Shown here: positions 9,001 to 38,964 of the stretch, in pieces
How positions within the stretch are numbered: position 1 is the stretch's first letter
Layout: every line of letters starts with the position of its first letter
IMG/VR virus record: IMGVR_UViG_3300034062_002410
Location: 21,293-85,292 of that record
Length of the DNA: 64,000 nt
Source: a virus
Reading direction: 5' to 3' (one strand)
Notes under the pieces: generated by a model
Database searches by the model: none
What the model was told of the DNA's origin: nothing
The model's input: only the letters and a program-made list of their open reading frames with translations
Position numbers and translations under genes: made by a program

Positions 9001-12000
9001 TACAAAACATTGCTACAGATAATGAGAAAGAGCAAGTAATGGGTAGAGTAAATCTAAACTCTTATACTCTTGATGTATCTAAGATATTAGCAATGTTAGG
9101 ATTTGACAAAGCTAAAAATGGTAACTCAATTCAGTTTACATTCTTATCTCAACCTATTATTAGAGAGTATGTAAAAGAAATGGATAATGTCAATTCTAAT
9201 GTTGCAAAGTTTAATCCTAATAAAGAATCTGCAGTAATTAATAAGCTATTAGAAAAGTATGGTAATAAGAATTATGAGTTAGGATATGATGTTGATGTTC
9301 AGAATACTAAGAACTTCACTATGGATAAGATGGAGAATCAGTTAAGAGGTGAAGTAGATAATGATTTTCAATTAGCTGTTTTAAATAGATTCTTAGAATT
9401 AAAGAAACTTGGACTTGCTGTAAGAACATTACAAGGTGCAATTAATACAGATTCAAAAGGATTAGGTAAATCTATATTAGATAATTCTCAAAAGATTGAG
9501 AGTATAAATAACCTATTGAGTAATCCAGTAATAACTAATGCAGGTGAGTTGTTAGGTAACTTTATTCCAATAGTAAAATATGAAAAAGGTAAGAGAATTA
9601 AAGCATTAAGTGATGCAGAATATCAATCTTATATAAATGATGGTTATGTAAAATTTGGTGATAACTTATTCTTACCTACTACTGTTAGTGGTGTATTTAC
9701 TGCTAGAGCATTAGTAACTGCTACTTCATTATGGGATAGGCATTTTCCATATAACTCTAAGTTATTCAATTCTATTTTTGAAAATCTAATGCCTTTGATA
9801 TCTAAAAGTGAAGCAAGTGATGCTAAGAAAGTAGAAAAGAAATCAATGGTTATTAAAGAAATCAAAAGATTCTTAAACTCTTATTCTGCTTCTAATACAT
9901 TATTTGATAATATAAATGCACAAGCAGAAAGAGAAAGATTATTCTTTGATAGACCAAGTACTGGTAAAGTATCTTTAGCAACTTACATTAAAGAACTTAA
10001 GAAAGCTAATAGTTCATTAGCATCTAATAAGTTAATAGAAAGACTTGAGTTAGTAGCAAATACTCAAGGTGAACCATCATTGATAAAATTCAATAATACA
10101 TCAGCAGGATTCTATGATGAGAATGGATTAAATAATGCACTACTTGAACTAATGGAGTTAAATCTTAACTTACCATCATTTAATAATGAACCATATACAA
10201 GTAGAAAATTAGCACAAGATTTAATTACCTATTCTTATCTTGAAGGAGGAGTACAAGAAGCAACTCAATTTGTTAAATTTATTCCATTGTCTTATCTTAA
10301 TAAGATGGGATTCACTTTTGGGTTATCAAATATTGATTTTGATTCAATGGGTGCATACTCAATATTTGATATTAATCCTGATTTACTAAATACTAACTCA
10401 AAATTCATAACTCAGTTTGTTCAACATAATCCTGGTATCTTACCTAAGTTAGATAACTACATTCCTAAAATTGGAGATATCAAAAACATAAGTGAGGTAA
10501 CTGAGTTTAACATTGAAAAAATGTTAAATGCTATTGAGTATCAAGGAATGACTGCAGCAGAGTTTTATGACTATTATAAAATGGATGCAAAACAAATTGA
10601 AGAATTTAAAATTGCACTTGCTAATAAAGTCAGTAATTTTTCAATGCCTGAGTTTGTAGCATTAAGAAAAGATGGTGAATACTTATTATGGAAAAGTGCA
10701 GGTAATGGAAATTATGTACAAGTTCCTGTAGTTCAATCAGGTATATCAGAATATGATAGTAATGTACAACAAATTACTCCATTATCATCTGAAATAGTTA
10801 CTCCTCAAAATCCTGTTAAAGAGCAACCATTAAGTCCTTCATCAGATGAATCTAAAGTAACTAATGAAACAAGATTTGGATTAGGTACTGATGCTTCATT
10901 AACTGATATAGTTACTAACTTAGCAAACTCTACAAGTATAGATGAATACTTAATAACTTTAGCTAAACAATTATTACCTGCCATTAACCCAACTACTAGT
11001 ATTACAGTAGATAATATTAAAACAAGAGGTAAATATAAAAGAGCTGAAAATGCTATAACTATTAGTGCTAGTCAAGCTAAAAATGCTACTGATACTGAAT
11101 TAGCAAGAACTATTCTTAAAGAGTTAATGCATTCTATTACTGATAATGAACTTGGTAAACATGTATATAGAAGCTCAGGAGATAATAAATACTATTTAAA
11201 ATCAAGTGATGCACCTAAGCATATTTCAGTACTCATTAATTTATTCAACCAAGTATCTAAAATACCTGAGTTTGAAAATGCAATAGAGTCTATTAAAAAG
11301 AAATTAGCAATAGAGGGGCAAGAGCAAGCACTTACACCAGAAGAAAATAGAATTTATTATGGTGCCTATGATGTATATGAGTTTGTTGAAATGATGATGA
11401 CTCAACCTGAGTTTCAACAAGAGATGGCTAAGATTAAAACTGGTAATGGTAAATCAGTATTAGACTTATTTAAAAACTTCTTAAATACTTTATTTAAAAA
11501 TTTAGGAATACAATTTGAAACAGGTACTGTTGCTTCAGAAGCTATTGAAAATATATTAATCCTTGTTGATGAAAAAGGTAGACTTAAACAACAACCTACT
11601 CAAACTCAACTTATTGCAAGTACTCAAACTGAATCTAATTTATTTTCAAAAGATGAAATAGATGCTATAAAAGGAAATTATTTAAATGCTGATGATTTAA
11701 GTATTGAGCAATTAAAAACTGTAGGTTCACCTTTAAGTTTAAAATTAGCAAAATTAAAAGAAGATATAAAATCTGCTTCACCATTTAATAAAGCAGATAT
11801 GAAATTAAAAGCAATGGATTTTTTAATTAATAATGAAGAAAAATTAATTAAAGAATTACAAATCTTTATACAACAAACTCCTGAAGTTAAACCTACTACA
11901 ACATCTAGTTTACCTGGACCAGAAACTAAAATTAATATTTATGCAGGTACAAGAGAAAATGCTGAGTTAAGTAATTTTGCTATTAGACCTTTTACTATAG

Positions 12001-21260: not shown

Positions 21261-21764
21261 CTATAAAAGACCTGTGCTGCCAAAACCATCCATGTTTCTA
21301 TTTGTATTGCCAAGTTCATCAACTATTAAAAAAGAAACTACCTCATATTGAGTTAATACACCTTGTGCAATTCTTTCACCTATTGATACTTTAGATAAAG
21401 ATTGAGTCATATTACAAAGTATAATTCCAATTTCTCCTCTATAATCTGAGTCTATAGTTCCAGGAGAATTAAATACTTTAAGTCCTTTCTTTAAAGATAC
21501 TCCACTTCTATCTCTTATTTCTAATTGATAACCTTCAGGTATATCCATAAATAATCCTGTACCTATTAATACTCTTTCAAAAGGTCTTAATACTATATAA
21601 CCTTTTTGAATACTATGTTGTAAATTATCATCTAAAGATATTTCTTGAAGTCCTTTATATAGTTTTAAAAATGAATCTGCATATAAGTCAAATCCTGCTG
21701 CTACTTTAGTTGCATAAAATGGTAATTCAACTCCATCATTCTTTCTTTTTACTTTTACTATCAT
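21261..21764 (-). CDS. dut: Trimeric dUTPase
   Basis: AGFDL, RSG, GTIDSDYRGE, RIAQ and GFGSTG motifs. Confidence 0.95.
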   Translation of the reverse strand: MIVKVKRKNDGVELPFYATKVAAGFDLYADSFLKLYKGLQEISLDDNLQHSIQKGYIVLRPFERVLIGTGLFMDIPEGYQLEIRDRSGVSLKKGLKVFNSPGTIDSDYRGEIGIILCNMTQSLSKVSIGERIAQGVLTQYEVVSFLIVDELGNTNRNMDGFGSTGLL

Positions 21765-25867: not shown

Positions 25868-26125
25868 TTAAATTAATTGACTTTTAAGGTAAATATTAAA
25901 TTGCATATCTACCTCTACTTCCCATTCACTATTGTCATTATCTTCTAAAATATGTAAATCTATATTGTTAATTTCTAATAACTTAAGATTTTCAGCCTCT
26001 TCTAATTTCTTAGTTGCTGCTAATATTGACATAGTGTAAGTGACAGACTTTTCATCTTCTGTTACTATTTTTGATGCACCATCAGTTAAAACGTAAAAAT
26101 CACTAATCTTTAATAATTTGAACAT
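25868..26125 (-). CDS. Hypothetical protein
   Basis: ORF track. Confidence 0.6.
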   Translation of the reverse strand: MFKLLKISDFYVLTDGASKIVTEDEKSVTYTMSILAATKKLEEAENLKLLEINNIDLHILEDNDNSEWEVEVDMQFNIYLKSQLI

Positions 26126-26142
26126 AGTTTTAGATTTTAAAA

Positions 26143-26166
26143 CAAAAGGGTATTTCTACCCTTTTG
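26143..26166 (-). terminator. Intrinsic terminator
   Basis: CAAAAGGGTA-TTTC-TACCCTTTTG (GAAA loop on the minus strand). Confidence 0.7.
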
Positions 26167-26178
26167 TGTGTTACAAAA

Positions 26179-26745
26179 TTATAAATCAATAAAAAATTCT
26201 TTTTCATCAATATTGGGTGGTAATTCTAATTCAGCTTCTTCTTTTAATTCTTCAACTTTTAAGTCAGATTTAAAATATTCATTTATTTTTTTAACAAACT
26301 TTATCTTATAGTTATTATCTTTTACTATTATTGCCTTATCATCATCTGTTAGAGAATCAAGAATTTCTTCATCATTATACATTTTACTATACTTACCTGA
26401 TAAAAACATATTAAGGTCTATAATATTAGGTAATCTGATTACAATCATGTGTAGTCTACCATTTAGTAAATTATCTACTGCATAATCATTTTCATAGTAT
26501 TCTTGTTCTCTTACCCATTCAATAACTTCTATAAATTTATTAGTGCATTTCTTAGTATCTATAAGTATGAATATATGTTTTTTATATTCTTCATTAATAT
26601 AATTGTCACTTATACCATAGGCTAATTTAAATACACTACTTAATTTTTTAACACATTCCTCACCATAATATCTTAAACAAGGTTTTACAAATCTTGCTGT
26701 TTTATTTATAGTGATTTTGCCAAGCTGAATTTTTATCCCTTCCAT
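26179..26745 (-). CDS. Hypothetical protein
   Basis: ORF track. Confidence 0.7.
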   Translation of the reverse strand: MEGIKIQLGKITINKTARFVKPCLRYYGEECVKKLSSVFKLAYGISDNYINEEYKKHIFILIDTKKCTNKFIEVIEWVREQEYYENDYAVDNLLNGRLHMIVIRLPNIIDLNMFLSGKYSKMYNDEEILDSLTDDDKAIIVKDNNYKIKFVKKINEYFKSDLKVEELKEEAELELPPNIDEKEFFIDL

Positions 26746-26750
26746 GTAGT

Positions 26751-27809
26751 TTAACTTCTTTGGTAATCTGAATCAATAGTAAATATACCATTGTGAATTT
26801 CTATTTCATAATCTTTATCCCAGCCATTTTCTTCTTGCCATTTATAGATTTGTAATAGATTTTTCCAACCATACATTTTTATTACTGATTCTTGTGTCCC
26901 ACTAGCATCATTAACATAGTATTGCCTTATTTTAGATGAGCCATATTTACCTGCATTTATAAACTCATTAGTAGTGTTAAATACAATTGGGTCACATTGT
27001 TTAGTAGTAGAAGCAACAATAAATTTAAAATTATCAACTTGATAATCTTTAAGGTTATCATCTCTCCATTTTTCTAAACCTTGTAAGTACCAAGATGCTT
27101 GTATATCATATCTTCTTCTAAGGCATTGATAATCAAAGAATTTAGTATAATCTCCAATAGTTTTAATATCTATTGGTGTTATAGTTTTAGTTTGAAAATC
27201 AACAATTACCATATCTAATAATGCTTTACATTCTACATTATTTTCTGTAAAATAAATAGGTAACTGATAGTAAATATTTATATGCTCCTTTGCTATAAAG
27301 TAGTCTTTAGTAAATCTGTGTTCTAATAATTGACTTACAATACTATCTATCTTAAGTATTTGTTCTTTATCTAACACAATTTTACCTTCACTCTGTAATA
27401 GTTCATTCCAATAACTTTCACCTTCTACTGAAACTTTAGTAATCTTAGTGTCAGGTTTCCAATTTGGTTGATAGTTATGTGCTTCAATTGCAGCTAATAG
27501 ATTATTATCAAAGAAATTATCTGATTCTCTGGATTGAAATACCTGTTGTACTATTGACATAATAGTATCACTTGGTTTTACAATGTCAGAAACATAATAA
27601 TTCTCATCAAAATAATCTTCTCCCATAGTAATAAAATCATCTACTGCTTTACCAATCAAGAAATGTTCTTTTTCTTCAAAGAATAAATCAGGTTCCTTAA
27701 CTTCTTGAAATGCTTGTGCACTTATACTTAGAAGTTTTAACTTACTCTGATTCATTGCAGGTGAATTTATATACTCCTGTATTTGTTCTTTACTACTTCT
27801 TATTATCAT
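26751..27809 (-). CDS. PD-(D/E)XK exonuclease (RecE/exonuclease VIII-like)
   Basis: SKLK, GKAVD, CKALLD...IDIKT, YDIQASWY. Confidence 0.85.
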   Translation of the reverse strand: MIIRSSKEQIQEYINSPAMNQSKLKLLSISAQAFQEVKEPDLFFEEKEHFLIGKAVDDFITMGEDYFDENYYVSDIVKPSDTIMSIVQQVFQSRESDNFFDNNLLAAIEAHNYQPNWKPDTKITKVSVEGESYWNELLQSEGKIVLDKEQILKIDSIVSQLLEHRFTKDYFIAKEHINIYYQLPIYFTENNVECKALLDMVIVDFQTKTITPIDIKTIGDYTKFFDYQCLRRRYDIQASWYLQGLEKWRDDNLKDYQVDNFKFIVASTTKQCDPIVFNTTNEFINAGKYGSSKIRQYYVNDASGTQESVIKMYGWKNLLQIYKWQEENGWDKDYEIEIHNGIFTIDSDYQRS

Positions 27810-28161
27810 AAACTAATTTTAATAATGTGAAAAAATCCTCAAAAGTCATAGTTACCAATGAACTATAATCATCCCTTTTCTTTCCTGGTTTACCTTGCTT
27901 ATGATGTATAAGCACTTTAGGAAATTGTTCTGAAAGTTTAGGAAGCTTAGTATCAATGTTCTTTAAGACCTCTTCAGGTTTCATTCCTTTATGTACTCCT
28001 GCTTTAATTTGTACAAGTAAAGGAATATTTGCTAAATCTACTCCACCATCATCTAACATTCTTGATGCATATCTGCTTGTTTGACAATCAGGGAATAATT
28101 CCTTAAACTTTTGGGCATAAAACCTTTCAGCGTTATGCCCTTTGTTTCTATTTTGATTCAT
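27793..28161 (-). CDS. Hjc-type Holliday junction resolvase-like nuclease
   Basis: RNKGHNAER, GVDL, VQIK motifs. Confidence 0.7.
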   Translation of the reverse strand: MNQNRNKGHNAERFYAQKFKELFPDCQTSRYASRMLDDGGVDLANIPLLVQIKAGVHKGMKPEEVLKNIDTKLPKLSEQFPKVLIHHKQGKPGKKRDDYSSLVTMTFEDFFTLLKLVYDNKK

Positions 28162-28636
28162 TAATAACTAGTTGTAATTTATCCTGTGATACAATGTAGG
28201 TGTCAACATACTTACTCAAAGATAAGAGATAATTCATAATTTTAGAATACTTTTTATCAGCTACATATTTCTTATCAATATATAATGCTAAACAAGAATT
28301 TCTATAATACTGATACTCTCTTAACTTGATAAAATATTGCTTCTTGTGTTTATTAACTACTTGAGCTACTATATTTAATGTTAAAGAATCAACTATAATG
28401 CCTTTAGTAATAAACAAATCTTCTTTTGGTAAATAAGCTACTTTAGGAGTAGTTGTAAAAAATGCTGTTAATACTTTATCAGTAGATGTTTTATTAGCTT
28501 TTACTAAATAAATAGTTGTGCCATTATTTCCATTAATGTTATTTGCACTACTAAAAAACTTATCTATATAAATTGTACTACCACTTACATAAGTATCATA
28601 TCTTGGAAATATAACATTGAAATCATCGTGCTTCAT
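28148..28636 (-). CDS. Hypothetical protein overlapping the E1 gene end
   Basis: ORF track; 14-nt overlaps on both sides. Confidence 0.65.
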   Translation of the reverse strand: MKHDDFNVIFPRYDTYVSGSTIYIDKFFSSANNINGNNGTTIYLVKANKTSTDKVLTAFFTTTPKVAYLPKEDLFITKGIIVDSLTLNIVAQVVNKHKKQYFIKLREYQYYRNSCLALYIDKKYVADKKYSKIMNYLLSLSKYVDTYIVSQDKLQLVINESK

Positions 28637-29381
28637 AATTTTCAGTTAGTTTATTGAATGGTATAATGTAATCCCACATATAAGGAATCTTGAATACATT
28701 ATCATCCCACTCTGTAACATTAGAAATAATGTTTGTGACAAAACCTGTAATATGAGTAGCAATCATAGCTGCACCATGAGATACTTGTTTCATTGTACAC
28801 ATTAAATCTTCAACATCTGAATCTGCAAATAAATGATTATCAATATAATCCATATGAAACTGTTGATTATCACCAGGAATACAATAAATTCTCATTTGTT
28901 CCATCAATAATCTACCATCTACAAACCAAATTTTATCTGGAGTTACAGAAGAATATTCATTGTTACAAACAGCAAGAAACTTTTCAAATAATAATTTTCT
29001 AGCTTCCATATTGTCAAATGCAGAAATAATTATGATTGGAGATTCTCTACTTGCATAACCTCCTCTGGTATTAATCAAATTATATAGATTAGTTTCTTGA
29101 ACAAGTTTCTCATTTCTATATGTAAATGAATAATCATTATCGTTAAATAAAGCAATAGTATTATGCAAAGCAATAACTTTAGATTCACCTATATCCTGAT
29201 GTAAAAACATTTGTCCACCAAGATTATGTTCTTCTACTAAGTCATAATCTACACTTAATACATTAAAACCTGCTCTTGTTAAAAAGAAACTTGTCCAAGA
29301 ACCTATACCACCTGCACCAAATACTAATATTCTTGCTGGCTTGTTATACCACAATGCATCTTTGAACCTATCTTTACTCAT
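28623..29381 (-). CDS. ThiF/E1-family ubiquitin-like activating enzyme
   Basis: DRF, VFGAGGIGS, DYDLVEEHNLGGQ, K, AFDNMEAR, VDGR, candidate catalytic Cys in LMCTMKQ. Confidence 0.9.
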   Translation of the reverse strand: MSKDRFKDALWYNKPARILVFGAGGIGSWTSFFLTRAGFNVLSVDYDLVEEHNLGGQMFLHQDIGESKVIALHNTIALFNDNDYSFTYRNEKLVQETNLYNLINTRGGYASRESPIIIISAFDNMEARKLLFEKFLAVCNNEYSSVTPDKIWFVDGRLLMEQMRIYCIPGDNQQFHMDYIDNHLFADSDVEDLMCTMKQVSHGAAMIATHITGFVTNIISNVTEWDDNVFKIPYMWDYIIPFNKLTENYEAR

Positions 29382-29382
29382 A

Positions 29383-30447
29383 TTACAATGTGTTTTCTTC
29401 TGTTAACAATTCTATCAATTCACTCAACACAACAAATTCATCAGCACTAAATATTAACTCCTCAATAAACTCTTCCCAAGTATCATCTAATTCAGATTTA
29501 AGAATAAATGGTTTTCCATAATACTCACCCATCCATTTCTTAAAATTAGATTTTATAGAAGCAGCATAATCATGTAGATTAAAATCTTGAAATTGAGTTA
29601 CTGAATTTTCTAAATCTTCTAATGCTTGTTCTAAATTATCATTTGGAACATCCATACCTAATCTTAGAATTTTACAAAACAATGGTTCTGATGCATTAAA
29701 CAAACTAACTCCTTCAGAAGGCATTGCACTTGTATCTTGCCACCAAGTAGCTTCATCAAATAACTCTGTCTGAGTATATTTAGAATTAGATTTAGGTTTA
29801 TAAAATTCAATCTTTGGAACAGGTTTAGGCTTGTTAATAGCTGTAAACTGATTTAAGAATGTTTCATCTACATTCCAAGTAGTTTCAGGTAGAACTATTT
29901 TACAATTATAATTACCTACATATTCATCTTCTTCTGTTGATGATAATGTAGTTATAGAATTATCAATATTTTGAAACTCAAATGTTGTAGGTGTAACTGT
30001 TTTAATTCTAAATGCAATCTTTGCAGAAAACTCATGTCTATTATTTACAATAATACTTAGATAAGGCTTAATGTGTTCAGAGTTTTCTACAACTTCATCT
30101 GTATCTGTACCTGAAAAGAATGTTTTCATGTTGTGATGTGAATGAAGATGTCCTATCTTTAAATGAAAATAATCTTTTTCCATCATATAAGATAATACTC
30201 TTTGGTCAAAAGAATACTCAGTAAATCCTGCACTACCTTTATCTAATGGAATCATATCCTCCACTTTAATATAGACAGTTTCAGGTTTTGCAAGGTCACC
30301 TTCAATTGAATAAAATGTACAACCACTCCATTCTACTTCATTGATGTAAGAACATAAGTATTGTATCTTTTCCCAAACTAAATGGGATAATTTTACAGGA
30401 ATTATGTACTCAAAATCATACAGTTTCAACTTTTTTATATTTTTCAT
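29383..30447 (-). CDS. JAB/MPN+ (JAMM) metallo-isopeptidase
   Basis: EWSG catalytic Glu, HLHSHHNMKTFFSGTD (HxH-x10-D), SIIVN. Confidence 0.88.
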   Translation of the reverse strand: MKNIKKLKLYDFEYIIPVKLSHLVWEKIQYLCSYINEVEWSGCTFYSIEGDLAKPETVYIKVEDMIPLDKGSAGFTEYSFDQRVLSYMMEKDYFHLKIGHLHSHHNMKTFFSGTDTDEVVENSEHIKPYLSIIVNNRHEFSAKIAFRIKTVTPTTFEFQNIDNSITTLSSTEEDEYVGNYNCKIVLPETTWNVDETFLNQFTAINKPKPVPKIEFYKPKSNSKYTQTELFDEATWWQDTSAMPSEGVSLFNASEPLFCKILRLGMDVPNDNLEQALEDLENSVTQFQDFNLHDYAASIKSNFKKWMGEYYGKPFILKSELDDTWEEFIEELIFSADEFVVLSELIELLTEENTL

Positions 30448-31639
30448 TTGCTAAATAATTTAGAATTTTATTATAATAATGATTTTCATTCAACTTGTTA
30501 TAAATATAACAAAGTGCTGGTTTAGTAATTTTAACTTCAAAGTTATCAGTTAATGATGCATTAGTTAATATTACAGGTCTTCTAGTTTTTTTAAATAAAA
30601 CATACTTACCTTCAATTTTATATTTCAAATCTACTGAACCAAGTTTGTTTACTACTTCTCCATTAGAATAGATAATAAAACTAAATGGATAACTTGAAAA
30701 AGAAAAACCAGCTGAAATAAGTAACCCAACTAAAATCTTTTCAAAATAATCATCTTTAAATACTAATTCATTATTAATTAAGAAAATAGCATTCTCTTTA
30801 ACTAGTCCATCTATTAATAAATAAAGATACTTATTGTCAAAACTCCTAGTAATGTACTTAGTCAAATTAAACAATTCAATTACTGATGATTTAACTACTG
30901 TATTATCTGTAAGATATGACATTTTGATATATGGACCACCCTCTAATGACTCATACTGCAAATATGCTTTAAGATTGAGAAGAAATAAGTTAAATACATT
31001 TGGTATTTCTTCTTTATTCTTATTCAATATTTGTTCATATAACATCATCATTGACATAGTAATATCAGTACCTGAACCTAAACAAAAATTAGTAAAACCA
31101 ACTGTAGCAGAAGAAGGTAAATGAGAATGACTATAATTCTTTTCAAGTTGTAATTCTGTAAAACTACCTCTCCTACCTAATAATCCTTTGTTATGTATAT
31201 CACCTTGTTGAGTAATATGAAATTGTACATACATATCTGTTATGTGAATAGACCTATTAAGTTTATTAGTAACTTTTAATTCAGGATAATGTATTACAAC
31301 AGTTAATCTAGGATAATAATGCATTATTTCAAAGTATAAATCACCATTATATGTAGTATTTATATATTCAAAATAGTTAAATGGAATTTTAGCATTAGTT
31401 TGATGATTTAAAATTCCAAAAGTATCAGATAATGCATGTACATTACAATCATAAGATAAATATATATCATAATCATATCCTTGTTTGTCTAACTCAGTTT
31501 TAATGATATTGTAAAACCAAAATATGCTTGATAAATTTTTATTTAATGTTTTGTAATACAGCAAGTTATTGATTCTGTTTAAATCTACATTACGTTTTTG
31601 ATTATTTTGATTATAAAACAATGATGCTATTCCTAACAT
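30416..31639 (-). CDS. Prokaryotic E2-like conjugating enzyme candidate
   Basis: YSHSHLPS...FTNFCLGSG (His motif, then catalytic Cys at 31082-31084), followed by helices and ESLEGGPY; lies between the Ubl and JAB genes. Confidence 0.65.
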   Translation of the reverse strand: MLGIASLFYNQNNQKRNVDLNRINNLLYYKTLNKNLSSIFWFYNIIKTELDKQGYDYDIYLSYDCNVHALSDTFGILNHQTNAKIPFNYFEYINTTYNGDLYFEIMHYYPRLTVVIHYPELKVTNKLNRSIHITDMYVQFHITQQGDIHNKGLLGRRGSFTELQLEKNYSHSHLPSSATVGFTNFCLGSGTDITMSMMMLYEQILNKNKEEIPNVFNLFLLNLKAYLQYESLEGGPYIKMSYLTDNTVVKSSVIELFNLTKYITRSFDNKYLYLLIDGLVKENAIFLINNELVFKDDYFEKILVGLLISAGFSFSSYPFSFIIYSNGEVVNKLGSVDLKYKIEGKYVLFKKTRRPVILTNASLTDNFEVKITKPALCYIYNKLNENHYYNKILNYLANEKYKKVETV

Positions 31640-31652
31640 ATAGATATAAATT

Positions 31653-31683
31653 AAAAAGAGCCTGATTGTTAGTCAGGCTCTTT
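31653..31683 (-). terminator. Intrinsic terminator between the Ubl and E2 genes
   Basis: Minus strand AAAGAGCCTGA-CTAACAA-TCAGGCTCTTTTT. Confidence 0.8.
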
Positions 31684-31697
31684 AGTTAGAAAATAAT

Positions 31698-32345
31698 TTA
31701 AATCTTTCCTTTCATCTTACTAATCCACTCATTTTCTGCATCTGTAAGTAAATCTGACTTTGTATTCATAGACTCACAAATAGTAGCAGCAGATACATGA
31801 CCATTAATAAGGTCAAATGCAAGTTCAAAATCATCTTTTCTTGCTTTATACTCATTACTAAAACGTAATGTATTTATAGCAGATTCTAAAAGGTGAGATT
31901 CATCTTCTTCATCCTCATTGTCATAATTATCTTCAACATACTCTTCTTCATAATCATCATCTTCACTTTCATTTTTCCAAGATAACAAAAGAGCTTCTAA
32001 CTCATCTTTAGATTTGTTAGTGTAGTTTTTGTTACCTGCATTAAAATGCTCGTGTGCAGCTTTTTTGTCATCTTCAAATGCTTGTTTGATTTGTAGTCTT
32101 ATCTCACTATAAGATAATCCACCACTCTTAGTTTTCTTAGGAGCTAGCATTAGTACAAATTCGCCATCAGGAAGAACAGCTTCATCTAACTCTAAGTTAG
32201 AATTGTTTTTGTTCTCTACTGCTGTCATATCAGATACTGAATAACCTTTATTAGTCAATTCATTTTTAAGTTGACCCCAGTTAGTTGCATTAGAGTCTAC
32301 TACTGCGATACCTGTTGCAGTAGAATAAATTTTAATTTTTCTCAT
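31698..32345 (-). CDS. Ubiquitin-like (beta-grasp) precursor: Ubl residues 1-76 ending KTKSGG plus a 139-aa extension
   Basis: Strand-strand-helix-strand pattern (RKIKIY / VVDS / TNWGQLKNEL / FVLMLAP); Gly75-Gly76 at 32118-32123. Confidence 0.7.
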   Translation of the reverse strand: MRKIKIYSTATGIAVVDSNATNWGQLKNELTNKGYSVSDMTAVENKNNSNLELDEAVLPDGEFVLMLAPKKTKSGGLSYSEIRLQIKQAFEDDKKAAHEHFNAGNKNYTNKSKDELEALLLSWKNESEDDDYEEEYVEDNYDNEDEEDESHLLESAINTLRFSNEYKARKDDFELAFDLINGHVSAATICESMNTKSDLLTDAENEWISKMKGKI

Positions 32346-32357
32346 TGTCTTAATAGT

Positions 32358-33332
32358 TTAAAATAAAAAATTGATTAATTCTTGTTTTTTTCCTGCTTTA
32401 ATAATGTCTGCAGGATCTTTTTCATCAAATGGTAATACTACACTTATAGCTTTAGAACTATAATGATTGTTAATATATTTTACTACTTTGTTAGATGCAG
32501 GTATACCAGCTTTATCATTGTCAAATAATACTATTACTTGATTAAATACTGAAATATACATTGATAATATTGATATATCAGGTAACATACCTTCATTTTG
32601 AAAATATATAGCATCTTTACCAAGATTAGTTAACACTCTCCAATCTTTATAACTCTTAGTTATATATAATGTATCACCTACAAATGGAAGATTCTTTGTA
32701 CCACCAATAGTATTTTTAGTAGTATTAGTTATCCATTTATATTCTTTAGATTTTGGCTTACATATTTTAATACCTTCACTTTTATATGAAATAGTGTAGG
32801 TAGTTTCTTGTGGAAAAGGTGTAAATATGTTTCCATTAACTTTAAACCATTTGGTAGCAAATATATTATCTGCTATAAGTTGGGAACTTGTTATCTCATA
32901 TTGTGACCAATATGTTTTATGATAATCATCAAATGGCTTAGGACAAAACTCTAACAATTTAGATGAAGATGTGGTAGATACAATGGATTGTGATTGTGAT
33001 TTATAATCTACATATTCTGATTTACCTTTAAATGAATTGTTATCCATTATATAAGTTATAGCATCTTTTAATGATAAGTTATAATACTCTTGTATTATAC
33101 CAATAGCATCTAAATTTACTACACCATAAGTACTTGCAAAATCAGTAAAATATAATTTACCATTTCTCCATTGTATCCAACATCCAGGGCTATCATCAAT
33201 TCTAAAAGGACTTTTTATATATACATTAGTTTCAAATTGACCAAAAACATGATTAAATATTTGTTCTTGGTTAATGTATTTAAATACATCTTCTATTGAT
33301 GAAAATGTAAAATCATCTTGATAGCCATACAT
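32358..33332 (-). CDS. dnaG: DNA primase (crAss-type, TOPRIM)
   Basis: SPFRIDDSPGC, FTDF, ITKSYKD, QNEG, LFDNDKAG, KDPAD. Confidence 0.85.
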   Translation of the reverse strand: MYGYQDDFTFSSIEDVFKYINQEQIFNHVFGQFETNVYIKSPFRIDDSPGCWIQWRNGKLYFTDFASTYGVVNLDAIGIIQEYYNLSLKDAITYIMDNNSFKGKSEYVDYKSQSQSIVSTTSSSKLLEFCPKPFDDYHKTYWSQYEITSSQLIADNIFATKWFKVNGNIFTPFPQETTYTISYKSEGIKICKPKSKEYKWITNTTKNTIGGTKNLPFVGDTLYITKSYKDWRVLTNLGKDAIYFQNEGMLPDISILSMYISVFNQVIVLFDNDKAGIPASNKVVKYINNHYSSKAISVVLPFDEKDPADIIKAGKKQELINFLF

Positions 33333-33359
33333 GGGTTAATGTTTATTGGTTAAATAAAA

Positions 33360-34145
33360 CTAGTCCCAAGAACTTTGAATTGGTTCTGTTCCATCAGTAG
33401 CTTTAGCAAAATTAGAAGTCATAAACCAATCAGTTCTTGTTACTGGGTGAAGTACAAAGTTACCATTATCTTCTTTTACATAAATCAAACCTTTATTAGA
33501 ATCTACTGTTATAGTAGCATCTCCAATACTAAGATTAAATTTCTTAGCTCCACCATTAGTTACAGGATAATCTGTACCTCTAAATGTAAAAGTCATAGCT
33601 TTACCATCAATAGTGATAGGCTCATAGTTACCTTCTTCAGCAAATACAAATACTTTACCTTGTTTTACATTAGATGGGATTTCTACATACTTAGTACCAT
33701 TGTCATTCTTAGAAGTCCATTGATATTGACAAAATACATCTAAGTTAATAGAACTAAAATCAGTAGGTAATAACTTAGCAAGAGCATTACAGTAAGATTT
33801 AAAGTTAGATACTCCCAATAATCCTTGTTTTAAATCTTCTTCAGTTATAAAACATTTCATTAATTGAGAAATCTTAGCATTAAATTCATTAAATGCAGCT
33901 CTCATTTCATTACTGCGAGGGTCAGTAATTTTGTTGCCATTTTTATCAATAGCTTGAGTTACAGGAAATTGACGCCAGTTTTTAACTGCTCCTCCTGAAA
34001 ATTCAAATGCAATATCAATACATTCCTGAGCAGCACCATCTTTGCCACCATTAGGATTAAACTCAAACTTCGTCATCTTAACTCCTTGGTTAAGACCAAA
34101 ATTCATTGAACTTGATGATTTCTCATCATTTGCATATCCATACAT
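33360..34145 (-). CDS. Replication-module protein, possible single-stranded DNA-binding protein
   Basis: Lies between the AAA ATPase and primase; beta-rich, with an aromatic/acidic C-terminus (SSWD). Confidence 0.4.
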   Translation of the reverse strand: MYGYANDEKSSSSMNFGLNQGVKMTKFEFNPNGGKDGAAQECIDIAFEFSGGAVKNWRQFPVTQAIDKNGNKITDPRSNEMRAAFNEFNAKISQLMKCFITEEDLKQGLLGVSNFKSYCNALAKLLPTDFSSINLDVFCQYQWTSKNDNGTKYVEIPSNVKQGKVFVFAEEGNYEPITIDGKAMTFTFRGTDYPVTNGGAKKFNLSIGDATITVDSNKGLIYVKEDNGNFVLHPVTRTDWFMTSNFAKATDGTEPIQSSWD

Positions 34146-34203
34146 AATTATAAGATTTACTTATTATAAAGGGTTATAAAATTACAAATTAATATTTAAA
34201 AGA

Positions 34204-34229
34204 AAAAGGGAAAAGGGTTACTTTTCCCT
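34204..34229 (-). terminator. Intrinsic terminator
   Basis: AGGGAAAAG...CTTTTCCCT hairpin followed by a T-run on the minus strand. Confidence 0.65.
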
Positions 34230-34237
34230 ATTATTCT

Positions 34238-34522
34238 TTATTCGAATACAGCTAATGTAGAATCTATTACTGGTGTTTCTTCTACATTTTCTACAGGATT
34301 AGTGATTTCACTAATTACCTTTTGAGTTACAATTACTTCTTGAGTAACATCATCCAACAAATCAATAGGTTGTTCTACTTTTTTAGTCTTTCTACCTTTA
34401 AGAAGTGGGTGATTAAATACAGATTTAAGTTGAGCAGTACTAAGGTTGTACTTTTCCTTAATCTGTTGTCTTGTTTGACCATTAGTTAGGTCATTGAGGA
34501 TTTCTGAAATTTTGATTTGCAT
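34238..34522 (-). CDS. Small HTH-like protein
   Basis: LTNGQTRQQIKEKYNLSTAQLKSVF. Confidence 0.55.
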   Translation of the reverse strand: MQIKISEILNDLTNGQTRQQIKEKYNLSTAQLKSVFNHPLLKGRKTKKVEQPIDLLDDVTQEVIVTQKVISEITNPVENVEETPVIDSTLAVFE

Positions 34523-34623
34523 TGTTTAAAAAATTAAAATAGTTAAAAAATTATTGTTTAGTTGGTTGTACACTATATACTAGTGTATATTGTTTCTTTT
34601 CAATTTTGACTCTTGGTCTTTTC

Positions 34624-35328
34624 TTATTCTCCTTCATAATATTTGTTTACTTGTTTAATTACATAACCTAAGTCATTTGGAATATAGAGTGAAAACATAC
34701 CTGCTGCAGATTTAGCAGGATATCTACCATCAAAGTTTGTGACAAATTGCTTAATAGCTTTTTTATTCTTTGAATCAAAATCTTGAGTGCCATAAAGGAC
34801 AATGTCAAACTTACCCTCTAATGAAATATATTGGTCAATCATTTTGCCAACAGTTTTGGCTTTATATGAAGTACCAAAAGTATTTTGAATTTCCTCAGGA
34901 TGAGTAAGCACTATTACATTGCCTTTAAACTTCTGTATTGCTTTAAAGATTTGACCAATGAAATAGCCAATGTCAGAAAATTTATCAAAGCCACTAGTCT
35001 TGGCTTTATCCATATAATAATCTGCCATTAGATATTGAAAATCATCAATTACTAAGTTCTTAATCTCAGGTTTTTTATCATTAAGAATACCAATAAGACC
35101 TGCTATTGCCATACCATCATTAGTATCTACATAATTACCAGTAGATAAATCTTTACCTTCTATTGCTTTATAAAGTTTCTTCCAACCTCTTGATGGAAAA
35201 TCTTTACCACTTACATTTACAATAAAAGTTTCTTTAGGGTCTAAACCCTTAATTCCAAGTTCCTCACTTGGGCAGATAGCAGTACTTTTGCCGAAACCTG
35301 ATTCAGCAATTACCATAATTTTTGCCAT
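34624..35328 (-). CDS. AAA_24/Sak4-like P-loop ATPase
   Basis: AESGFGKST, VIDDFQY, LTH, KTVGKMID, AKS. Confidence 0.85.
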   Translation of the reverse strand: MAKIMVIAESGFGKSTAICPSEELGIKGLDPKETFIVNVSGKDFPSRGWKKLYKAIEGKDLSTGNYVDTNDGMAIAGLIGILNDKKPEIKNLVIDDFQYLMADYYMDKAKTSGFDKFSDIGYFIGQIFKAIQKFKGNVIVLTHPEEIQNTFGTSYKAKTVGKMIDQYISLEGKFDIVLYGTQDFDSKNKKAIKQFVTNFDGRYPAKSAAGMFSLYIPNDLGYVIKQVNKYYEGE

Positions 35329-35344
35329 TGTTTTGTTTTTAAAA

Positions 35345-35596
35345 TTAAGATTTGAAATAGAGTTCTCCTGGTCTTAAATAACCATTTGAGTTTTGATTTT
35401 CTACAATAGTAATCATCAGACCTCTTTTTAATCCATCAAGATAATATGGTGCATACTCATCTTGAGATTTTTCAAGTTCATTCATTACTTTAGAAGAATC
35501 TACTACTGTACATCCATAAATAGGTGTATGAGTAAATGCTATTCTGATATTAGAATCAGAAATTAAATTGCGATAATAACCTTTTGGTGCTGTCAT
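35345..35596 (-). CDS. Hypothetical protein
   Basis: ORF track. Confidence 0.65.
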   Translation of the reverse strand: MTAPKGYYRNLISDSNIRIAFTHTPIYGCTVVDSSKVMNELEKSQDEYAPYYLDGLKRGLMITIVENQNSNGYLRPGELYFKS

Positions 35597-35598
35597 AA

Positions 35599-36693
35599 TT
35601 AAATTGATTTAAAATGTTTAATATTACCATACATTTGTACTCCCAAATGCATTGGACACTCAGTATCACGAGATTCTACTAAGTGTATTGACCTATAATT
35701 TGGATATTCATGTAATGGATAACCAAAATGAACTGATAATCCATATTTCTCATCAGTAGGATTAAAAAGAGTTAGTAGGTAATCACATTCTTCTGATAAA
35801 TTACCTGAATCTTTTACATCCTCACCTGTAGGATATATGTACTCACCATTGAATTTTAATCTTTCTATATTAGATATAGACCTGTTTAGATGCACAATAT
35901 GTACAAATGTAAAATGACAGAAGTTTCTGAGTTCTACTGTGTATTCTATCCATTTGTCCATATTCTCTTTCATACTGTAACCTCTTTCTCTCTTGAGTTT
36001 ACGAATGTGGTCAGTAATGATAATAGTTCTCTTTTGCTTATTAGCAATGTTGTAACCTATCAATCTTTTCTTAGTAACTTTCTTACCTTCTTCTGTAGTT
36101 TCATAATCTTGATATACAAACTCACCATTCTTTTTAGCATAAGCAAGAATAGTATTTCTCATACCAGTAGGATTATCTCTGTCTTCTAAGAATTGTATTA
36201 TGCCTTCTTTTATCTGATGACCTCTATAGTCATATTCACCAAAGAATGGAATTATCCTATTGGTGTATATATCTTGGAGGATAGTTTTATGTTCATCAGA
36301 TAATGGAATGATATTACCTTCTCTGTCTTGTAATTTACCTAACAGATATCTACTTGACAAAGGATACTCTTCATCATTATGATAAATAGATTTTATACCA
36401 TAGTCATGATAAAAGAAGAATGATGCAAAGTCAAATTCTTTTTTGACTCTATCAATCTCATAAGAAAAATAGATTACAGTAATAGGAATGTTTTCTTTAA
36501 TACAATGTAATATAGGATGAATAACAAAACCAAAGTCTACTAATGTAGATTTACCAACTTTTGGACCAGCAGCTACACCATAAATAGCTTTCTTTTGAAC
36601 ACCATCTATTGCTCTATCCAATGGTGGTAAACCTGTTGGTAATCCTTTATTTTCTCCTTCCTGACCCTGCTTTAATGCCTCAAGGAAATTCAT
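35599..36693 (-). CDS. dnaB: DnaB-like replicative helicase
   Basis: GLPTG...LD, AGPKVGKST, YFSYEI, ITDH, HLNR, DVKDSG. Confidence 0.85.
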   Translation of the reverse strand: MNFLEALKQGQEGENKGLPTGLPPLDRAIDGVQKKAIYGVAAGPKVGKSTLVDFGFVIHPILHCIKENIPITVIYFSYEIDRVKKEFDFASFFFYHDYGIKSIYHNDEEYPLSSRYLLGKLQDREGNIIPLSDEHKTILQDIYTNRIIPFFGEYDYRGHQIKEGIIQFLEDRDNPTGMRNTILAYAKKNGEFVYQDYETTEEGKKVTKKRLIGYNIANKQKRTIIITDHIRKLKRERGYSMKENMDKWIEYTVELRNFCHFTFVHIVHLNRSISNIERLKFNGEYIYPTGEDVKDSGNLSEECDYLLTLFNPTDEKYGLSVHFGYPLHEYPNYRSIHLVESRDTECPMHLGVQMYGNIKHFKSI

Positions 36694-37226
36694 TATTTCA
36701 TGAGTTTATTATTGGGGTCAATCTTGTTTTTAGATTTAGCTTCTAAAACTCTATCTACCCATTGTGAAAGCATAGACATTTTATAATTACCTTGCCCATC
36801 ATAAATGAATCTCTCAGCAGTTTTAACATACTGTGATTCTACATTTCTAAGATAAAGTGTAGTAGCTTCTAATACATCTTCTTTTCTAACATGAGGATTT
36901 TCAGAAAAGAATAATTTCATTCTCATTACACATGTTTTTTTAGAACCAGACCTTTCTTTGTTTTTAGATGCAAATAATTCTCTATACTGATTAACCCATT
37001 CCCATACTGAATCTACATTTTGACCATCATAGAGAGGTAAATGCCATTCTATAGTATTTGTTTTGTAATCTCTTTCAACTATTCCAAGATTATTTACAGT
37101 TCTTATAGTTTTTTCAGATATACAAGTAGATTCAATATTGTGAAATATAGATAAAAGATAAAGTACACCTTCACTTTCTACATCATGCTCTTCAAGTAGT
37201 TTAAATATTTCTTGATTAATTTTCAT
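36693..37226 (-). CDS. Hypothetical protein (possible helicase loader/initiator)
   Basis: Translationally coupled to dnaB. Confidence 0.6.
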   Translation of the reverse strand: MKINQEIFKLLEEHDVESEGVLYLLSIFHNIESTCISEKTIRTVNNLGIVERDYKTNTIEWHLPLYDGQNVDSVWEWVNQYRELFASKNKERSGSKKTCVMRMKLFFSENPHVRKEDVLEATTLYLRNVESQYVKTAERFIYDGQGNYKMSMLSQWVDRVLEAKSKNKIDPNNKLMK

Positions 37227-37572
37227 GCTCTAAGTTTTTAAAAGATTGTATAACTAATTTATTTATTTCTTGTGACATCCAATCTATTTGATTTTCAGGA
37301 ACATAGGACAATAAAGCAAATACTTCAGCCATTAATCCTATACTATCAAATGTATAAGAATGTAATAATTCTTTATCTGCTGCAGTTGCTGAATTAGAAA
37401 TTGTATACATAAAATTTCTAATATTACTCCTAATATTTAAAAATCTTACTTTGTTTTGTCCCTTCATTTTATCAGGTTCTAATTCAGCAATAGCATATAA
37501 AGTACCATTTAACATAGTTAAAAGTAAATAAATCTTACTTGCTGTGACTGTATCTAAATTCTCAATTCGCAT
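37216..37572 (-). CDS. Hypothetical protein
   Basis: ORF track. Confidence 0.65.
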   Translation of the reverse strand: MRIENLDTVTASKIYLLLTMLNGTLYAIAELEPDKMKGQNKVRFLNIRSNIRNFMYTISNSATAADKELLHSYTFDSIGLMAEVFALLSYVPENQIDWMSQEINKLVIQSFKNLEHEN

Positions 37573-37876
37573 ACTCTTGTTTTTTAATTAAAATGTCATA
37601 ATCTAATTGGAATTCTTTAGTTTCATTTTTACTTTTTACCATTTCTATAAGCTTCTTATAGTTTTCTTCAGTAAAAGCAAATCTTTTAGCTAAAAAGAAC
37701 TTATAAGGATAACATGTTGCATCTAAAGTTATTTCAGCTAATGTTACCCCTAACTCATTTTGTGGCAATACAGTAACAACATCAATAATATGATATTCTT
37801 GCTCTTCCTTAATCCATTTACTTAAAGGAAAATCTGAAGGTTTTCCTTTATCATCAATACAAATACATAGTATCAT
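37562..37876 (-). CDS. Hypothetical protein
   Basis: ORF track; N-terminal CICIDD. Confidence 0.65.
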   Translation of the reverse strand: MILCICIDDKGKPSDFPLSKWIKEEQEYHIIDVVTVLPQNELGVTLAEITLDATCYPYKFFLAKRFAFTEENYKKLIEMVKSKNETKEFQLDYDILIKKQEYAN

Positions 37877-38964
37877 AATGATAAGATTTTAATTTTATCA
37901 GGGTCTAATCCTTCTAATGCTTTTTTAATCCACTCTTCATCAACAGTATTTGCATAATAGGTAATGAATATTTGAGCAATAGCATCATCTTCCATATTAC
38001 ACATTCTCATAACTTTTTGGATAGCAGATTCTTCAGAACTTTTCATCTGATGAAATATGCCAACTTTAAGATTAGGGAATGTGATGCCCATATTAGTCAT
38101 CTCACATACTGCAAGCTTATTTATTGTACCTGACATAAAAGATTCTAATACTTCAGGAGTAGATTTAGAATGGTAACCTGAACCTAATTGGTCAGCAATT
38201 TCTGTTCTTGCAGTAAATATTAAGCATCTGTCAAATTTAGCAATAATTTTTGATACTGCTTCTAATTTTGTTTTAGAATTATAAATTAAATTAGCTCTTT
38301 TAGAAGCATATTGCATTTTAACTGCATTCATTTTAGGATTATTCCATGCTGCTCTTTTAAATTTAGTAAATTGTTCTGTAAGATATTGATAATTAAGATA
38401 TTCTGTAGTTTTAAATGTAGTAGTTTTATTACCTGCATCTATATATTTATCTTTATTGTCAAGAGTTACAGGAACTAAATTAATTTCATAGTTAGCAACA
38501 ATACCATCTTTAACAGCTTCTTCTAAAGTATATTTAAAGATAGTTTTTAATCCTAATTCTTGTCGCAATTGTTTTTCAGTTTCTTTAGAAATAGAACCTG
38601 ATACACCTAATATAGGACCATCAAAATTTTGTAATACTTGTATTTGAGCATTAGATAATGTATGTATCTCATCACAAATAATAATGTCATACATATTTAA
38701 ATCACTTTCTTTAGCTAAACTTCTTTGATTTATGATAGCTATTGGAATATTTACACCCCATTTGTTTAATTCTGTTGTCCAGGATTCTTGAATAGAATTA
38801 TATGGTACAGTAATAAGTATTGTCTGAGGAACTTTAAATATTTTAATAGCATCACATACAATTTTAGATTTACCAACTCTTGGTGCAACATTAATAATAC
38901 CTCTAAAATTATGAAGGTGTATCTTCTGTGTTGCTTGCTGCTGTATTTGATTTCTCAACTCCAT
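37873..38964 (-). CDS. SF2 (DExH) helicase
   Basis: APRVGKS, CDEIH, SGS, GITFPNL, QKVMR. Confidence 0.85.
   Translation of the reverse strand: MELRNQIQQQATQKIHLHNFRGIINVAPRVGKSKIVCDAIKIFKVPQTILITVPYNSIQESWTTELNKWGVNIPIAIINQRSLAKESDLNMYDIIICDEIHTLSNAQIQVLQNFDGPILGVSGSISKETEKQLRQELGLKTIFKYTLEEAVKDGIVANYEINLVPVTLDNKDKYIDAGNKTTTFKTTEYLNYQYLTEQFTKFKRAAWNNPKMNAVKMQYASKRANLIYNSKTKLEAVSKIIAKFDRCLIFTARTEIADQLGSGYHSKSTPEVLESFMSGTINKLAVCEMTNMGITFPNLKVGIFHQMKSSEESAIQKVMRMCNMEDDAIAQIFITYYANTVDEEWIKKALEGLDPDKIKILSL

Follow-up and report, generated by a model that had tools for sequence, protein, structure and literature searches.

A putative ubiquitin-type cassette in a phage replication module

We analyzed a stretch of viral DNA of 64,000 nucleotides (nt), hereafter the window (positions 21,293 to 85,292 of IMG/VR virus record IMGVR_UViG_3300034062_002410, which has 85,292 bases and is estimated to be 92% complete), whose minus strand carries a gene for a putative ubiquitin-like (Ubl) precursor. 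The gene belongs to a co-directional string that runs from a gene for a protein of 261 amino acids (aa) and a primase gene, through the Ubl precursor gene, to the genes of an E2-like candidate, a JAB/JAMM metallopeptidase and a ThiF-type E1 (Table 1). The E2-like and JAB genes overlap by 32 nt, the JAB and E1 genes lie 1 nt apart, the E1 gene overlaps the next open reading frame (ORF) by 14 nt, and more tightly packed genes continue the string past it. Between the Ubl precursor and E2-like genes there is a gap of 58 nt, which holds a hairpin resembling an intrinsic terminator.

A first-pass annotation, made from the sequence of the window without database searches, had described a 215-aa ORF in which Gly75-Gly76 is followed by 139 residues, and had read it as a precursor that the neighboring JAB peptidase cuts into a modifier and a second polypeptide. 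The ORF is present as described, and so is the acidic linker that was quoted from it (16 of the 23 residues at positions 126–148 are Asp or Glu). The precursor reading is also supported by our analysis: the gene encodes a predicted beta-grasp-like domain that ends at a conserved glycine, and it sits beside a JAMM peptidase with an invariant active-site motif and a ThiF-type E1. The exact processing site, the nature of the second polypeptide and the role of the hairpin are treated below.

Table 1. Coordinates of the Ubl cassette and associated features (positions in the window unless a locus is named; residues are those of the 215-aa precursor).
Feature	Position	Strand	Remarks
Terminator-like hairpin, upstream	34207-34229	minus	start of the 261-aa gene/primase/Ubl precursor unit
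261-aa gene	33360-34145	minus	head of the co-directional replication string
Primase	32358-33332	minus	between the 261-aa gene and the Ubl precursor
Ubl precursor ORF	31698-32345	minus	215 aa
Ubl domain, residues 1-75, ending K73-S74-G75	32121..32345	minus	predicted mature modifier, 8161 Da
Predicted JAB processing site, codon 75/76 boundary	32118..32123	minus	
C-terminal polypeptide (tail), residues 76-215	31701..32120	minus	140 aa, 16239 Da, isoelectric point (pI) 4.4
Tail parts			conserved block 77-125; acidic linker 126-148; helical block 149-186; C-terminal motif 200-215
Intrinsic-terminator-like hairpin and U-rich tract	31655-31683 (hairpin); 31645-31654 (U-rich tract)	minus	ends 15 nt before the E2-like ATG
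E2-like candidate	30416-31639	minus	407 aa; placed by cassette position and motif pattern only
JAB/JAMM metallopeptidase	29383-30447	minus	354 aa; predicted processing enzyme
ThiF-type E1	28623-29381	minus	252 aa; one adenylation domain
Separate small ORF in three relatives	L044 6277-6426; L045 about 1531-1686; L048 4994-5140		between Ubl gene and hairpin

A single conserved glycine marks the predicted processing site

Residues 71–76 of the window protein read KTKSGG, with the codon of Gly75 at 32121-32123 and that of Gly76 at 32118-32120. We aligned the window protein with 143 of the 150 listed representatives of its family, the other seven being part of an earlier alignment already. Among these 144 proteins (hereafter the representatives), Gly75 occupied the only invariant column. 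Position 73 was Lys in 138, and position 74 was Ser in 109, Ala in 32, Gly in two and Leu in one. Position 76, by contrast, was variable: Ala 58, Leu 15, Gly 14, Ser 13, Val 12, Ile 10, and others. The alignment of 25 relatives likewise had K73-S74-G75 invariant and position 76 variable. Hence, a C-terminal glycine at the domain end, a feature of modifiers of the ubiquitin/ThiS/MoaD type, is present in every one of the representatives, whereas the second glycine of a ubiquitin-type Gly-Gly is found in 14 of 144. In a motif search that located the site in 144 of 151 proteins, the conserved glycine fell anywhere from residue 73 to 103 (median 77), so the numerical match with ubiquitin, which the first-pass annotation had noted, is meaningless.

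Two further observations indicate that the domain stops at Gly75 and that this residue is the reactive terminus. Many tblastn matches to relatives stop exactly at residue 75, and a few phages carry domain-only ORFs that end one residue after the glycine, as KSG-F (L044), KSG-R (L045/L046) and KSG-K (L048). These stand-alone forms represent three distinct phages at four loci; they came from the retrieved loci, and a word-based search for family proteins shorter than 118 aa found none. Since one residue still follows KSG, trimming would be needed even in the stand-alone forms, which fits the retention of the peptidase. In the Crassvirales phage DAC15 the site reads KSG-A. We also noted that the DAC15 homologue (L002, 5941-6681) has an extra Pro/Thr-rich insertion of ~18 residues within the Ubl domain, before the last strand.

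We therefore weighed a cut after Gly76, as the first-pass annotation had proposed, against a cut after Gly75. The former would yield a tag that ends Gly-Gly as in ubiquitin, and it would suit the KSGG of the window protein, of its close relatives (≥80% identity) and of Flavobacterium phage Fpv1. On the other hand, 130 of the 144 representatives have a residue other than glycine at position 76, where Ala is found 58 times and Gly 14 times, and the stand-alone forms continue with Phe, Arg or Lys. The first-pass annotation had itself named homologs without the glycine as grounds for rejection; on that count Gly76 is rejected and Gly75 is upheld. Moreover, in the available text of the relevant reports (cited below), both characterized bacterial JAB enzymes cut directly after a single conserved glycine. 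Processing after Gly76 is thus very unlikely. By contrast, the invariance of Gly75 argues with good confidence for a precursor that is cut at this residue.

Linked enzymes and the fold of the Ubl domain

The common gene order among relatives is primase, sometimes UDG, Ubl protein, 400-aa protein, JAB, and ThiF. We found this cassette order in three cultured groups, represented by Flavobacterium phage Fpv1, Crassvirales phage DAC15 and crAss001. In crAss001 it comprises gp79-gp76, with the annotations metalloprotease-domain protein for gp77 and ThiF for gp76. A profile search, run exhaustively, returned 2130 clusters (at 50% identity) with E ≤ 0.001, 1175 of them with E ≤ 1e-10, and an IMG/VR scan returned 56 loci.

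The JAB protein has a complete JAMM/MPN+ zinc site (E...HxH-x7-S-xx-D), and its residues E39, H102, H104, S112 and D115 are invariant in 25/25 JAB sequences. Its match to Pfam Prok-JAB is weak (E 0.0081, 16.5 bits, cut-off 25); that of the DAC15 homologue has E 6.5e-5. A JAMM-motif ORF lies downstream of the Ubl gene in 27 of 28 loci. The E1 protein matches ThiF in Pfam (E 4e-16, above cut-off) and in NCBIfam (E 7.6e-20, below the equivalog cut-off), and its GxGGxGS motif, D123-N124, R128 and C195 are invariant in 25/25 sequences. By motif, a ThiF-type E1 was identified at 23 of the 28 loci; of the five others, some are cut short by the end of their DNA.

The 407-aa protein encoded between the Ubl precursor and JAB genes is a candidate E2 on the strength of its position and motif. 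In an alignment of 36 sequences, H171-S172-H173, C186, G188, E230-S231, G234 and P236 are invariant; the HSH lies 13 residues before Cys186, and a conserved ESLEGGP follows this cysteine. We take this pattern to resemble the HPN...Cys...W-P layout of UBC enzymes. A Pfam scan of 36 E2-like relatives matched no E2 family, and a tblastn search against plasmids found no homologue.

The JAB gene of Fpv1 (L001, NC_031914) appears to be split. A 117-aa ORF (8056-8409, plus strand) matches the N-terminal part; it is followed by an opposite-strand gene annotated 'endonuclease' (8572-9321, minus strand) and by an ORF (9404-10348, plus strand) in which the HxH...S..D motif begins at the third residue. 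This might be a homing-endonuclease or intron-type insertion placed exactly at the active-site motif. The split would explain why the intact JAB protein of the window matches two PHROGs (21448 and 16107).

The fold of the Ubl domain was approached through the ESM Atlas, which contains the exact sequence of the protein. The structural neighbors of residues 1–76 in the Atlas model include ubiquitin-like clusters (template modeling (TM) score 0.70), a ThiS PF02597 cluster (TM 0.68 by query and 0.65 by target, 69 residues aligned) and an SDE2 N-terminal Ubl cluster (TM 0.67). We regard these neighbors as a lead for a Ubl fold, not as proof. In family searches, the precursor matched no named family in Pfam, PADLOC or NCBIfam, and its PHROGs matches were all of unknown function. 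Pfam gave no match for the ten longest relatives and weak, chance-like matches only for ten further relatives that included crAss001, DAC15 and Fpv1; a search with ThiS PF02597 of the phage's own 85292-base record had no match either. A Ubl domain is nevertheless the best reading, because the structural lead coincides with an invariant terminal glycine and with linked E1 and JAB genes.

The same features could describe a ThiS/MoaD-like sulfur carrier that is trimmed by JAB and thiocarboxylated by the ThiF-type E1, and that supplies the sulfur, within the replication/nucleotide module, for modifying DNA, tRNA or a cofactor. The QbsE/QbsD and CysO/Mec+ systems rely on JAB peptidases for the trimming or release of their sulfur carriers; the E1 is of the minimal, 252-aa ThiF/MoeB type, with ThiF and MoeB as its best family matches; and ThiS is among the structural neighbors. 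However, at every locus a large protein with an invariant cysteine in a UBC-like motif context is encoded between the Ubl and JAB genes, and Pfam and NCBIfam searches found no rhodanese or cysteine-desulfurase domain in the cassette proteins. The gene order also matches that of the bacterial ISG15-like (Bil) operons, so far as the available text on them goes. These points are not decisive, yet together they make a sulfur carrier an unlikely reading.

The C-terminal polypeptide is conserved in part and exchangeable between phages

The first-pass annotation had suggested that cleavage releases a second, possibly functional polypeptide. Consistent with this, the tail does not look like a throw-away pro-peptide. 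Mean identity to the window protein among 30 relatives was 62% for the Ubl domain, 51% for residues 77–125 and 37% for the C-terminal motif at 200–215, compared with 16% for the acidic linker, 30% for residues 149–186 and 17% for residues 187–199. Within the first block, F101, Y108 and T109 are nearly invariant among the representatives. Given these identities and the near-invariant residues, part of the tail must be under selection, and the conserved blocks indicate that a released tail probably has a function of its own. Searches for that function gave no named family in Pfam or PHROGs, no E2-like motif or family match, and PDB profile matches of E 0.2 or worse for the tail alone.

The tail is also variable in length and type. 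It spans 24 to 297 residues across the representatives, and some tail types lack the 77–125 block (for example, L037-L041). The tail of L049 is one of these and is a Lys/Ala/Thr-rich low-complexity stretch. We noted matches to the SAP (DNA-binding) domain in four of the 144 representatives (best E 5.4e-6); three regular-expression scans located neither the sequences nor the positions of the matching relatives. The SAP matches and the Lys-rich tail of L049 are a hint that some tails may bind DNA.

The stand-alone phages (L044, L045 and L048) carry a separate ORF of 48-50 aa between the Ubl and E2-like genes, in the place of the tail. Its ATG overlaps the Ubl stop codon in L048 and L045 (read from the sequence in L045), and numerous synonymous changes separate the copies of L045 and L048, the pattern expected for a real gene. 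Fusion followed by cleavage and translational coupling would both give 1:1 synthesis, which points to a joint requirement for the tag and its partner polypeptide.

These comparisons bear on another alternative, in which the precursor is never cleaved and the Ubl part is a permanent interaction domain of a 215-aa replication-module protein, with Gly75 as a structural linker. The block at 77–125, directly after the glycine, is indeed conserved almost as well as the Ubl domain. Against this, the glycine is the single invariant residue in 144 proteins, while the part that follows is exchangeable and may consist of one residue only or be encoded by a separate ORF, and an E1 and an intact JAMM peptidase co-occur throughout. 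We consider a permanently fused protein quite unlikely and retain a precursor that is cut at Gly75.

A terminator-like hairpin precedes the E2-like gene at all loci examined

The first-pass annotation had noted a strong intrinsic terminator between the Ubl and E2-like genes. This element is real and positionally conserved. In the window, the hairpin (31683..31655) has an 11-base-pair stem that includes 5 G-C pairs and encloses a loop of 7 nt; its tail is TTAATTTATA. It is flanked by the Ubl stop (31698) and the E2-like start (31639), so that a hairpin and then a U-tract follow the stop codon as in an intrinsic terminator. In a 70-nt context it folds with -19.5 kcal/mol, compared with -6.85 ± 2.3 in 200 shuffles (z = -5.5; 0/200 shuffles fold as well). 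The surrounding region, 26000-38000, contains eight terminator-like sites, compared with 1.9 ± 1.3 in shuffles.

We then examined 32 of 60 stretches (59 loci and the window). Twenty-three duplicates or near-duplicates were omitted (L003-L005, L007, L009, L010, L012-L016, L018, L019, L022, L025, L027, L028, L032, L035, L041, L046, L052 and L053), as were five loci whose E2 start lies outside their DNA (L026, L029, L049, L056 and L058). A hairpin and T-tract before the E2-like start codon were present in 32/32, including crAss001, DAC15 and Fpv1, with folding free energies (dG) from -11.3 to -23.9 (median -15.3) and a distance of 13-46 nt (median 18) from the hairpin end to the ATG. By comparison, such an element precedes 13 of 377 other ORFs (Fisher value 1.8e-37). 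Eight of the omitted loci, scanned separately, all had a hairpin after the Ubl stop. Since the hairpin sequences of the 32 loci are unrelated, it is the structure and its place that are conserved, not the letters. A stricter scan (hairpin ≤40 nt after the stop, dG ≤ -10) recovered 27 of 30 Ubl genes versus 24 of 362 other same-strand ORFs of the same loci. The three misses are the split forms and L055, in which the hairpin follows the small ORF or has a short GAAA-loop stem. As the hairpin comes after the small ORF in the split forms, it evidently tracks the E2 start rather than the end of the Ubl gene.

It had further been proposed that the terminator uncouples the modifier from the enzymes. 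This is overstated: the 15-nt gap in the window (13-46 nt across the 32 loci) is too short for a promoter, so the enzyme genes would have to be read through the hairpin. A scan for the Bacteroidota-type promoter pattern TTTG-N18-22-TAnnTTTG gave six matches in the window, with 4.05 ± 1.95 expected, and none in 26000-38000. We favor attenuator-type control by read-through as a reasonably likely role for the element. It might otherwise be an efficient terminator with an overlapping promoter for the enzymes (an insulator), or an RNA-processing or 3'-stabilizing element for the upstream message. The T-rich tracts are similar to a portion of the Bacteroidota -7 element, and a stabilizing hairpin would give the same conserved position. 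An insulator is disfavored by the short distance to the ATG and by the lack of a match to the promoter pattern in or near the gap. These roles are conceivable, if doubtful, and we proceed with the attenuator.

A second hairpin marks the other end of the unit. It follows a 94-aa ORF (34238-34522), and the 261-aa gene begins after ~60 nt. A terminator also follows the equivalent ORF of ~90-104 aa in L006, L008, L021 and L024. The replication module thus seems to be divided into short units by hairpins. At the far end of the cassette, the ORF that overlaps the end of the E1 gene (28148-28636, minus strand, 162 aa) had no family match in Pfam, PADLOC, PHROGs or NCBIfam.

Relation to known systems

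The phage cassette appears to work like two bacterial systems, Bil and type I Bub, yet judged by sequence it lacks the membership features of both. According to the available text of two reports (Chambers et al., 10.1101/2023.09.26.559546; Hor et al., 10.1101/2023.09.04.556158), BilABCD are anti-phage operons that serve in host defense, and BilC cuts E. aridi BilA between Gly97 and Ala98, that is, right after one conserved glycine. So far as this text allows comparison, Bil and the phage cassette share four genes ordered Ubl, E2 (a candidate in the phage), JAB, E1, and in both the residue after the conserved glycine is often Ala. They differ in setting, as Bil defends hosts whereas lytic crAss-like phages carry the present cassette within their replication module, and in what follows the glycine, namely overhangs of 1-9 residues in Bil and 140 residues here (24-297 in relatives). 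Furthermore, the phage E1 is minimal, with 252 aa and a single ThiF domain, and does not match the Bil E1 architecture in the available text of PMC11601596. PADLOC had no model match for the Ubl, E2-like or JAB protein, and the E1 matched only CBASS-type 'E1-E2' models over the nucleotide-binding region.

In type I Bub (6E.1), as far as the account of Ye et al. (PMC11601596) is available, the Ubl-E2 fusion BubAB is a substrate of the JAB domain of BubCD, which cleaves it after the conserved G229. Thus, as predicted for the phage, a Ubl is made fused to a sizeable second protein and JAB releases both after a conserved glycine. By the same account, however, the fusion partner in Bub is the E2, whereas that of the phage is a non-enzymatic, acidic helical polypeptide; the Bub peptidase is fused to the E1, whereas the phage JAB, E1 and E2-like proteins have separate genes; and Bub catalysis proceeds via oxyesters, whereas the phage E1 and E2-like proteins both keep an invariant cysteine. 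The Bub operon also contains BubE (DUF6527), and no DUF6527 match was found among nine scanned phage neighbor proteins.

PRTRC (ParB-related, ThiF-related) systems of plasmids and integrative elements likewise link a ThiF-type E1 and a JAB-like protein on a mobile element. In NCBIfam, the window E1 matched PRTRC_ThiF with E 1.3e-8 (34.5 bits vs a cut-off of 144.75) and the window JAB matched PRTRC_A with E 0.037 (13.6 bits vs a cut-off of 101.8); no PRTRC model matched the Ubl or E2-like protein.

For the fusion, eukaryotic genes provide the nearest functional parallel. In ubiquitin-ribosomal protein fusions, FUBI-eS30 and SDE2, an N-terminal Ubl is removed by a deubiquitinase-type enzyme, and an unrelated, functional C-terminal polypeptide is released 1:1. 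The eukaryotic precursors differ in having a Gly-Gly site where the phage has a single glycine, in their non-homologous tails and in the protease families involved. For the hairpin, the parallel lies with internal operon attenuators that set subunit ratios, such as the E. coli terminator located between rplJL and rpoBC: an intrinsic terminator stands inside a co-directional string with no promoter behind it, and the downstream genes are expressed at a fixed fraction of the upstream ones. The phage hairpin differs in that it parts a modifier precursor from the enzymes that would process and conjugate it.

A proposed mechanism

Taken together, we propose that the Ubl gene encodes a pro-modifier whose residues 1–75 form a beta-grasp domain ending in Lys-Ser-Gly75. 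The JAMM peptidase would cut after Gly75, not Gly76; the freed Gly75 carboxylate would be adenylated by the ThiF-type E1, which has the invariant Cys195; and the tag would be passed to Cys186 of the E2-like protein and then onto targets. The same cut would free the 140-residue acidic helical polypeptide (residues 76–215), 1:1 with the tag. The hairpin with its U-rich tract (31645-31683) would close a unit of the 261-aa gene, the primase gene and the Ubl precursor gene, so that E2, JAB and E1 would be transcribed by read-through only. It would act as an attenuator that is either constitutively leaky or relieved later in infection, and that either holds the enzyme transcripts below those of the substrate or postpones enzyme expression. 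As a whole, this combination of a pro-modifier cut at Gly75 with an attenuator is our best explanation, to which we give slightly better than even credence.

Several observations weigh against this proposal. The beta-grasp fold depends on the ESM Atlas model and its neighbors, and the whole protein has a predicted local distance difference test (pLDDT) value of 0.58 there. A Pfam scan of the 144 relatives had no Ubl family among the 25 most-matched families, and a PDB profile search with the Ubl family returned chance-level matches or none, and no Ubl. The E2-like protein had no named match in Pfam, PADLOC, NCBIfam or the PDB, and its PHROGs matches are of unknown function only. Regarding the hairpin, the 32 loci come from related phages, so that the Fisher value for its enrichment overstates independence. 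crAss-like phages have their own RNA polymerase, which bears on how they respond to intrinsic terminators. Finally, the first-pass annotation had expected the terminator to provide a large excess of modifier over enzymes, as befits a stoichiometric tag. However, the 261-aa gene and the primase gene share the unit that the hairpin closes, and the primase is no stoichiometric protein; this logic is therefore not specific to the tag, and the case for it is weakened.

Implications

Full-text searches, with subscription-only papers and supplements outside their reach, found no paper that joins crAss-like phages with ubiquitin-like proteins or ThiF. The available text of a preprint on crAss001 transcriptomics (10.1101/2024.11.17.624012) deals with host responses, not with phage operon structure. 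In sum, sequence comparison points to a Ubl precursor encoded by phages that has a long and exchangeable partner, a single-glycine site and, before the E2-like gene, a universal element that is probably an attenuator.

The cassette offers a defined processing site, a 1:1 partner polypeptide and a universal hairpin as experimental handles, and it occurs in cultured systems (crAss001 gp79-gp76, DAC15 gp048-gp051 and FpV4/Fpv1). As K73 hardly varies, lysines that carry the tag should retain a Ser-Gly remnant after tryptic digestion; at ~144.05 Da (by arithmetic from standard residue masses), this remnant would make target discovery by mass spectrometry feasible. The correction of the site from Gly76 to Gly75 matters for the design of the mature tag and of non-cleavable mutants.

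So far, prokaryotic ubiquitin-type conjugation has been studied as host defense (Bil, Bub and CBASS). We tentatively suggest that crAss-like phages may run a ubiquitin-type tagging of their own, in which every tag comes with one copy of a fast-evolving partner, either cut from a fusion by JAB or translated from a coupled small ORF, and in which the attenuator before the E2-like gene sets or times the ratio. If so, the tail would serve after its release as an effector or adaptor, such as a factor associated with the replisome or with DNA, or a partner that gives the tag its specificity, and the cassette would be a viral counterpart of the eukaryotic ubiquitin-fusion genes.

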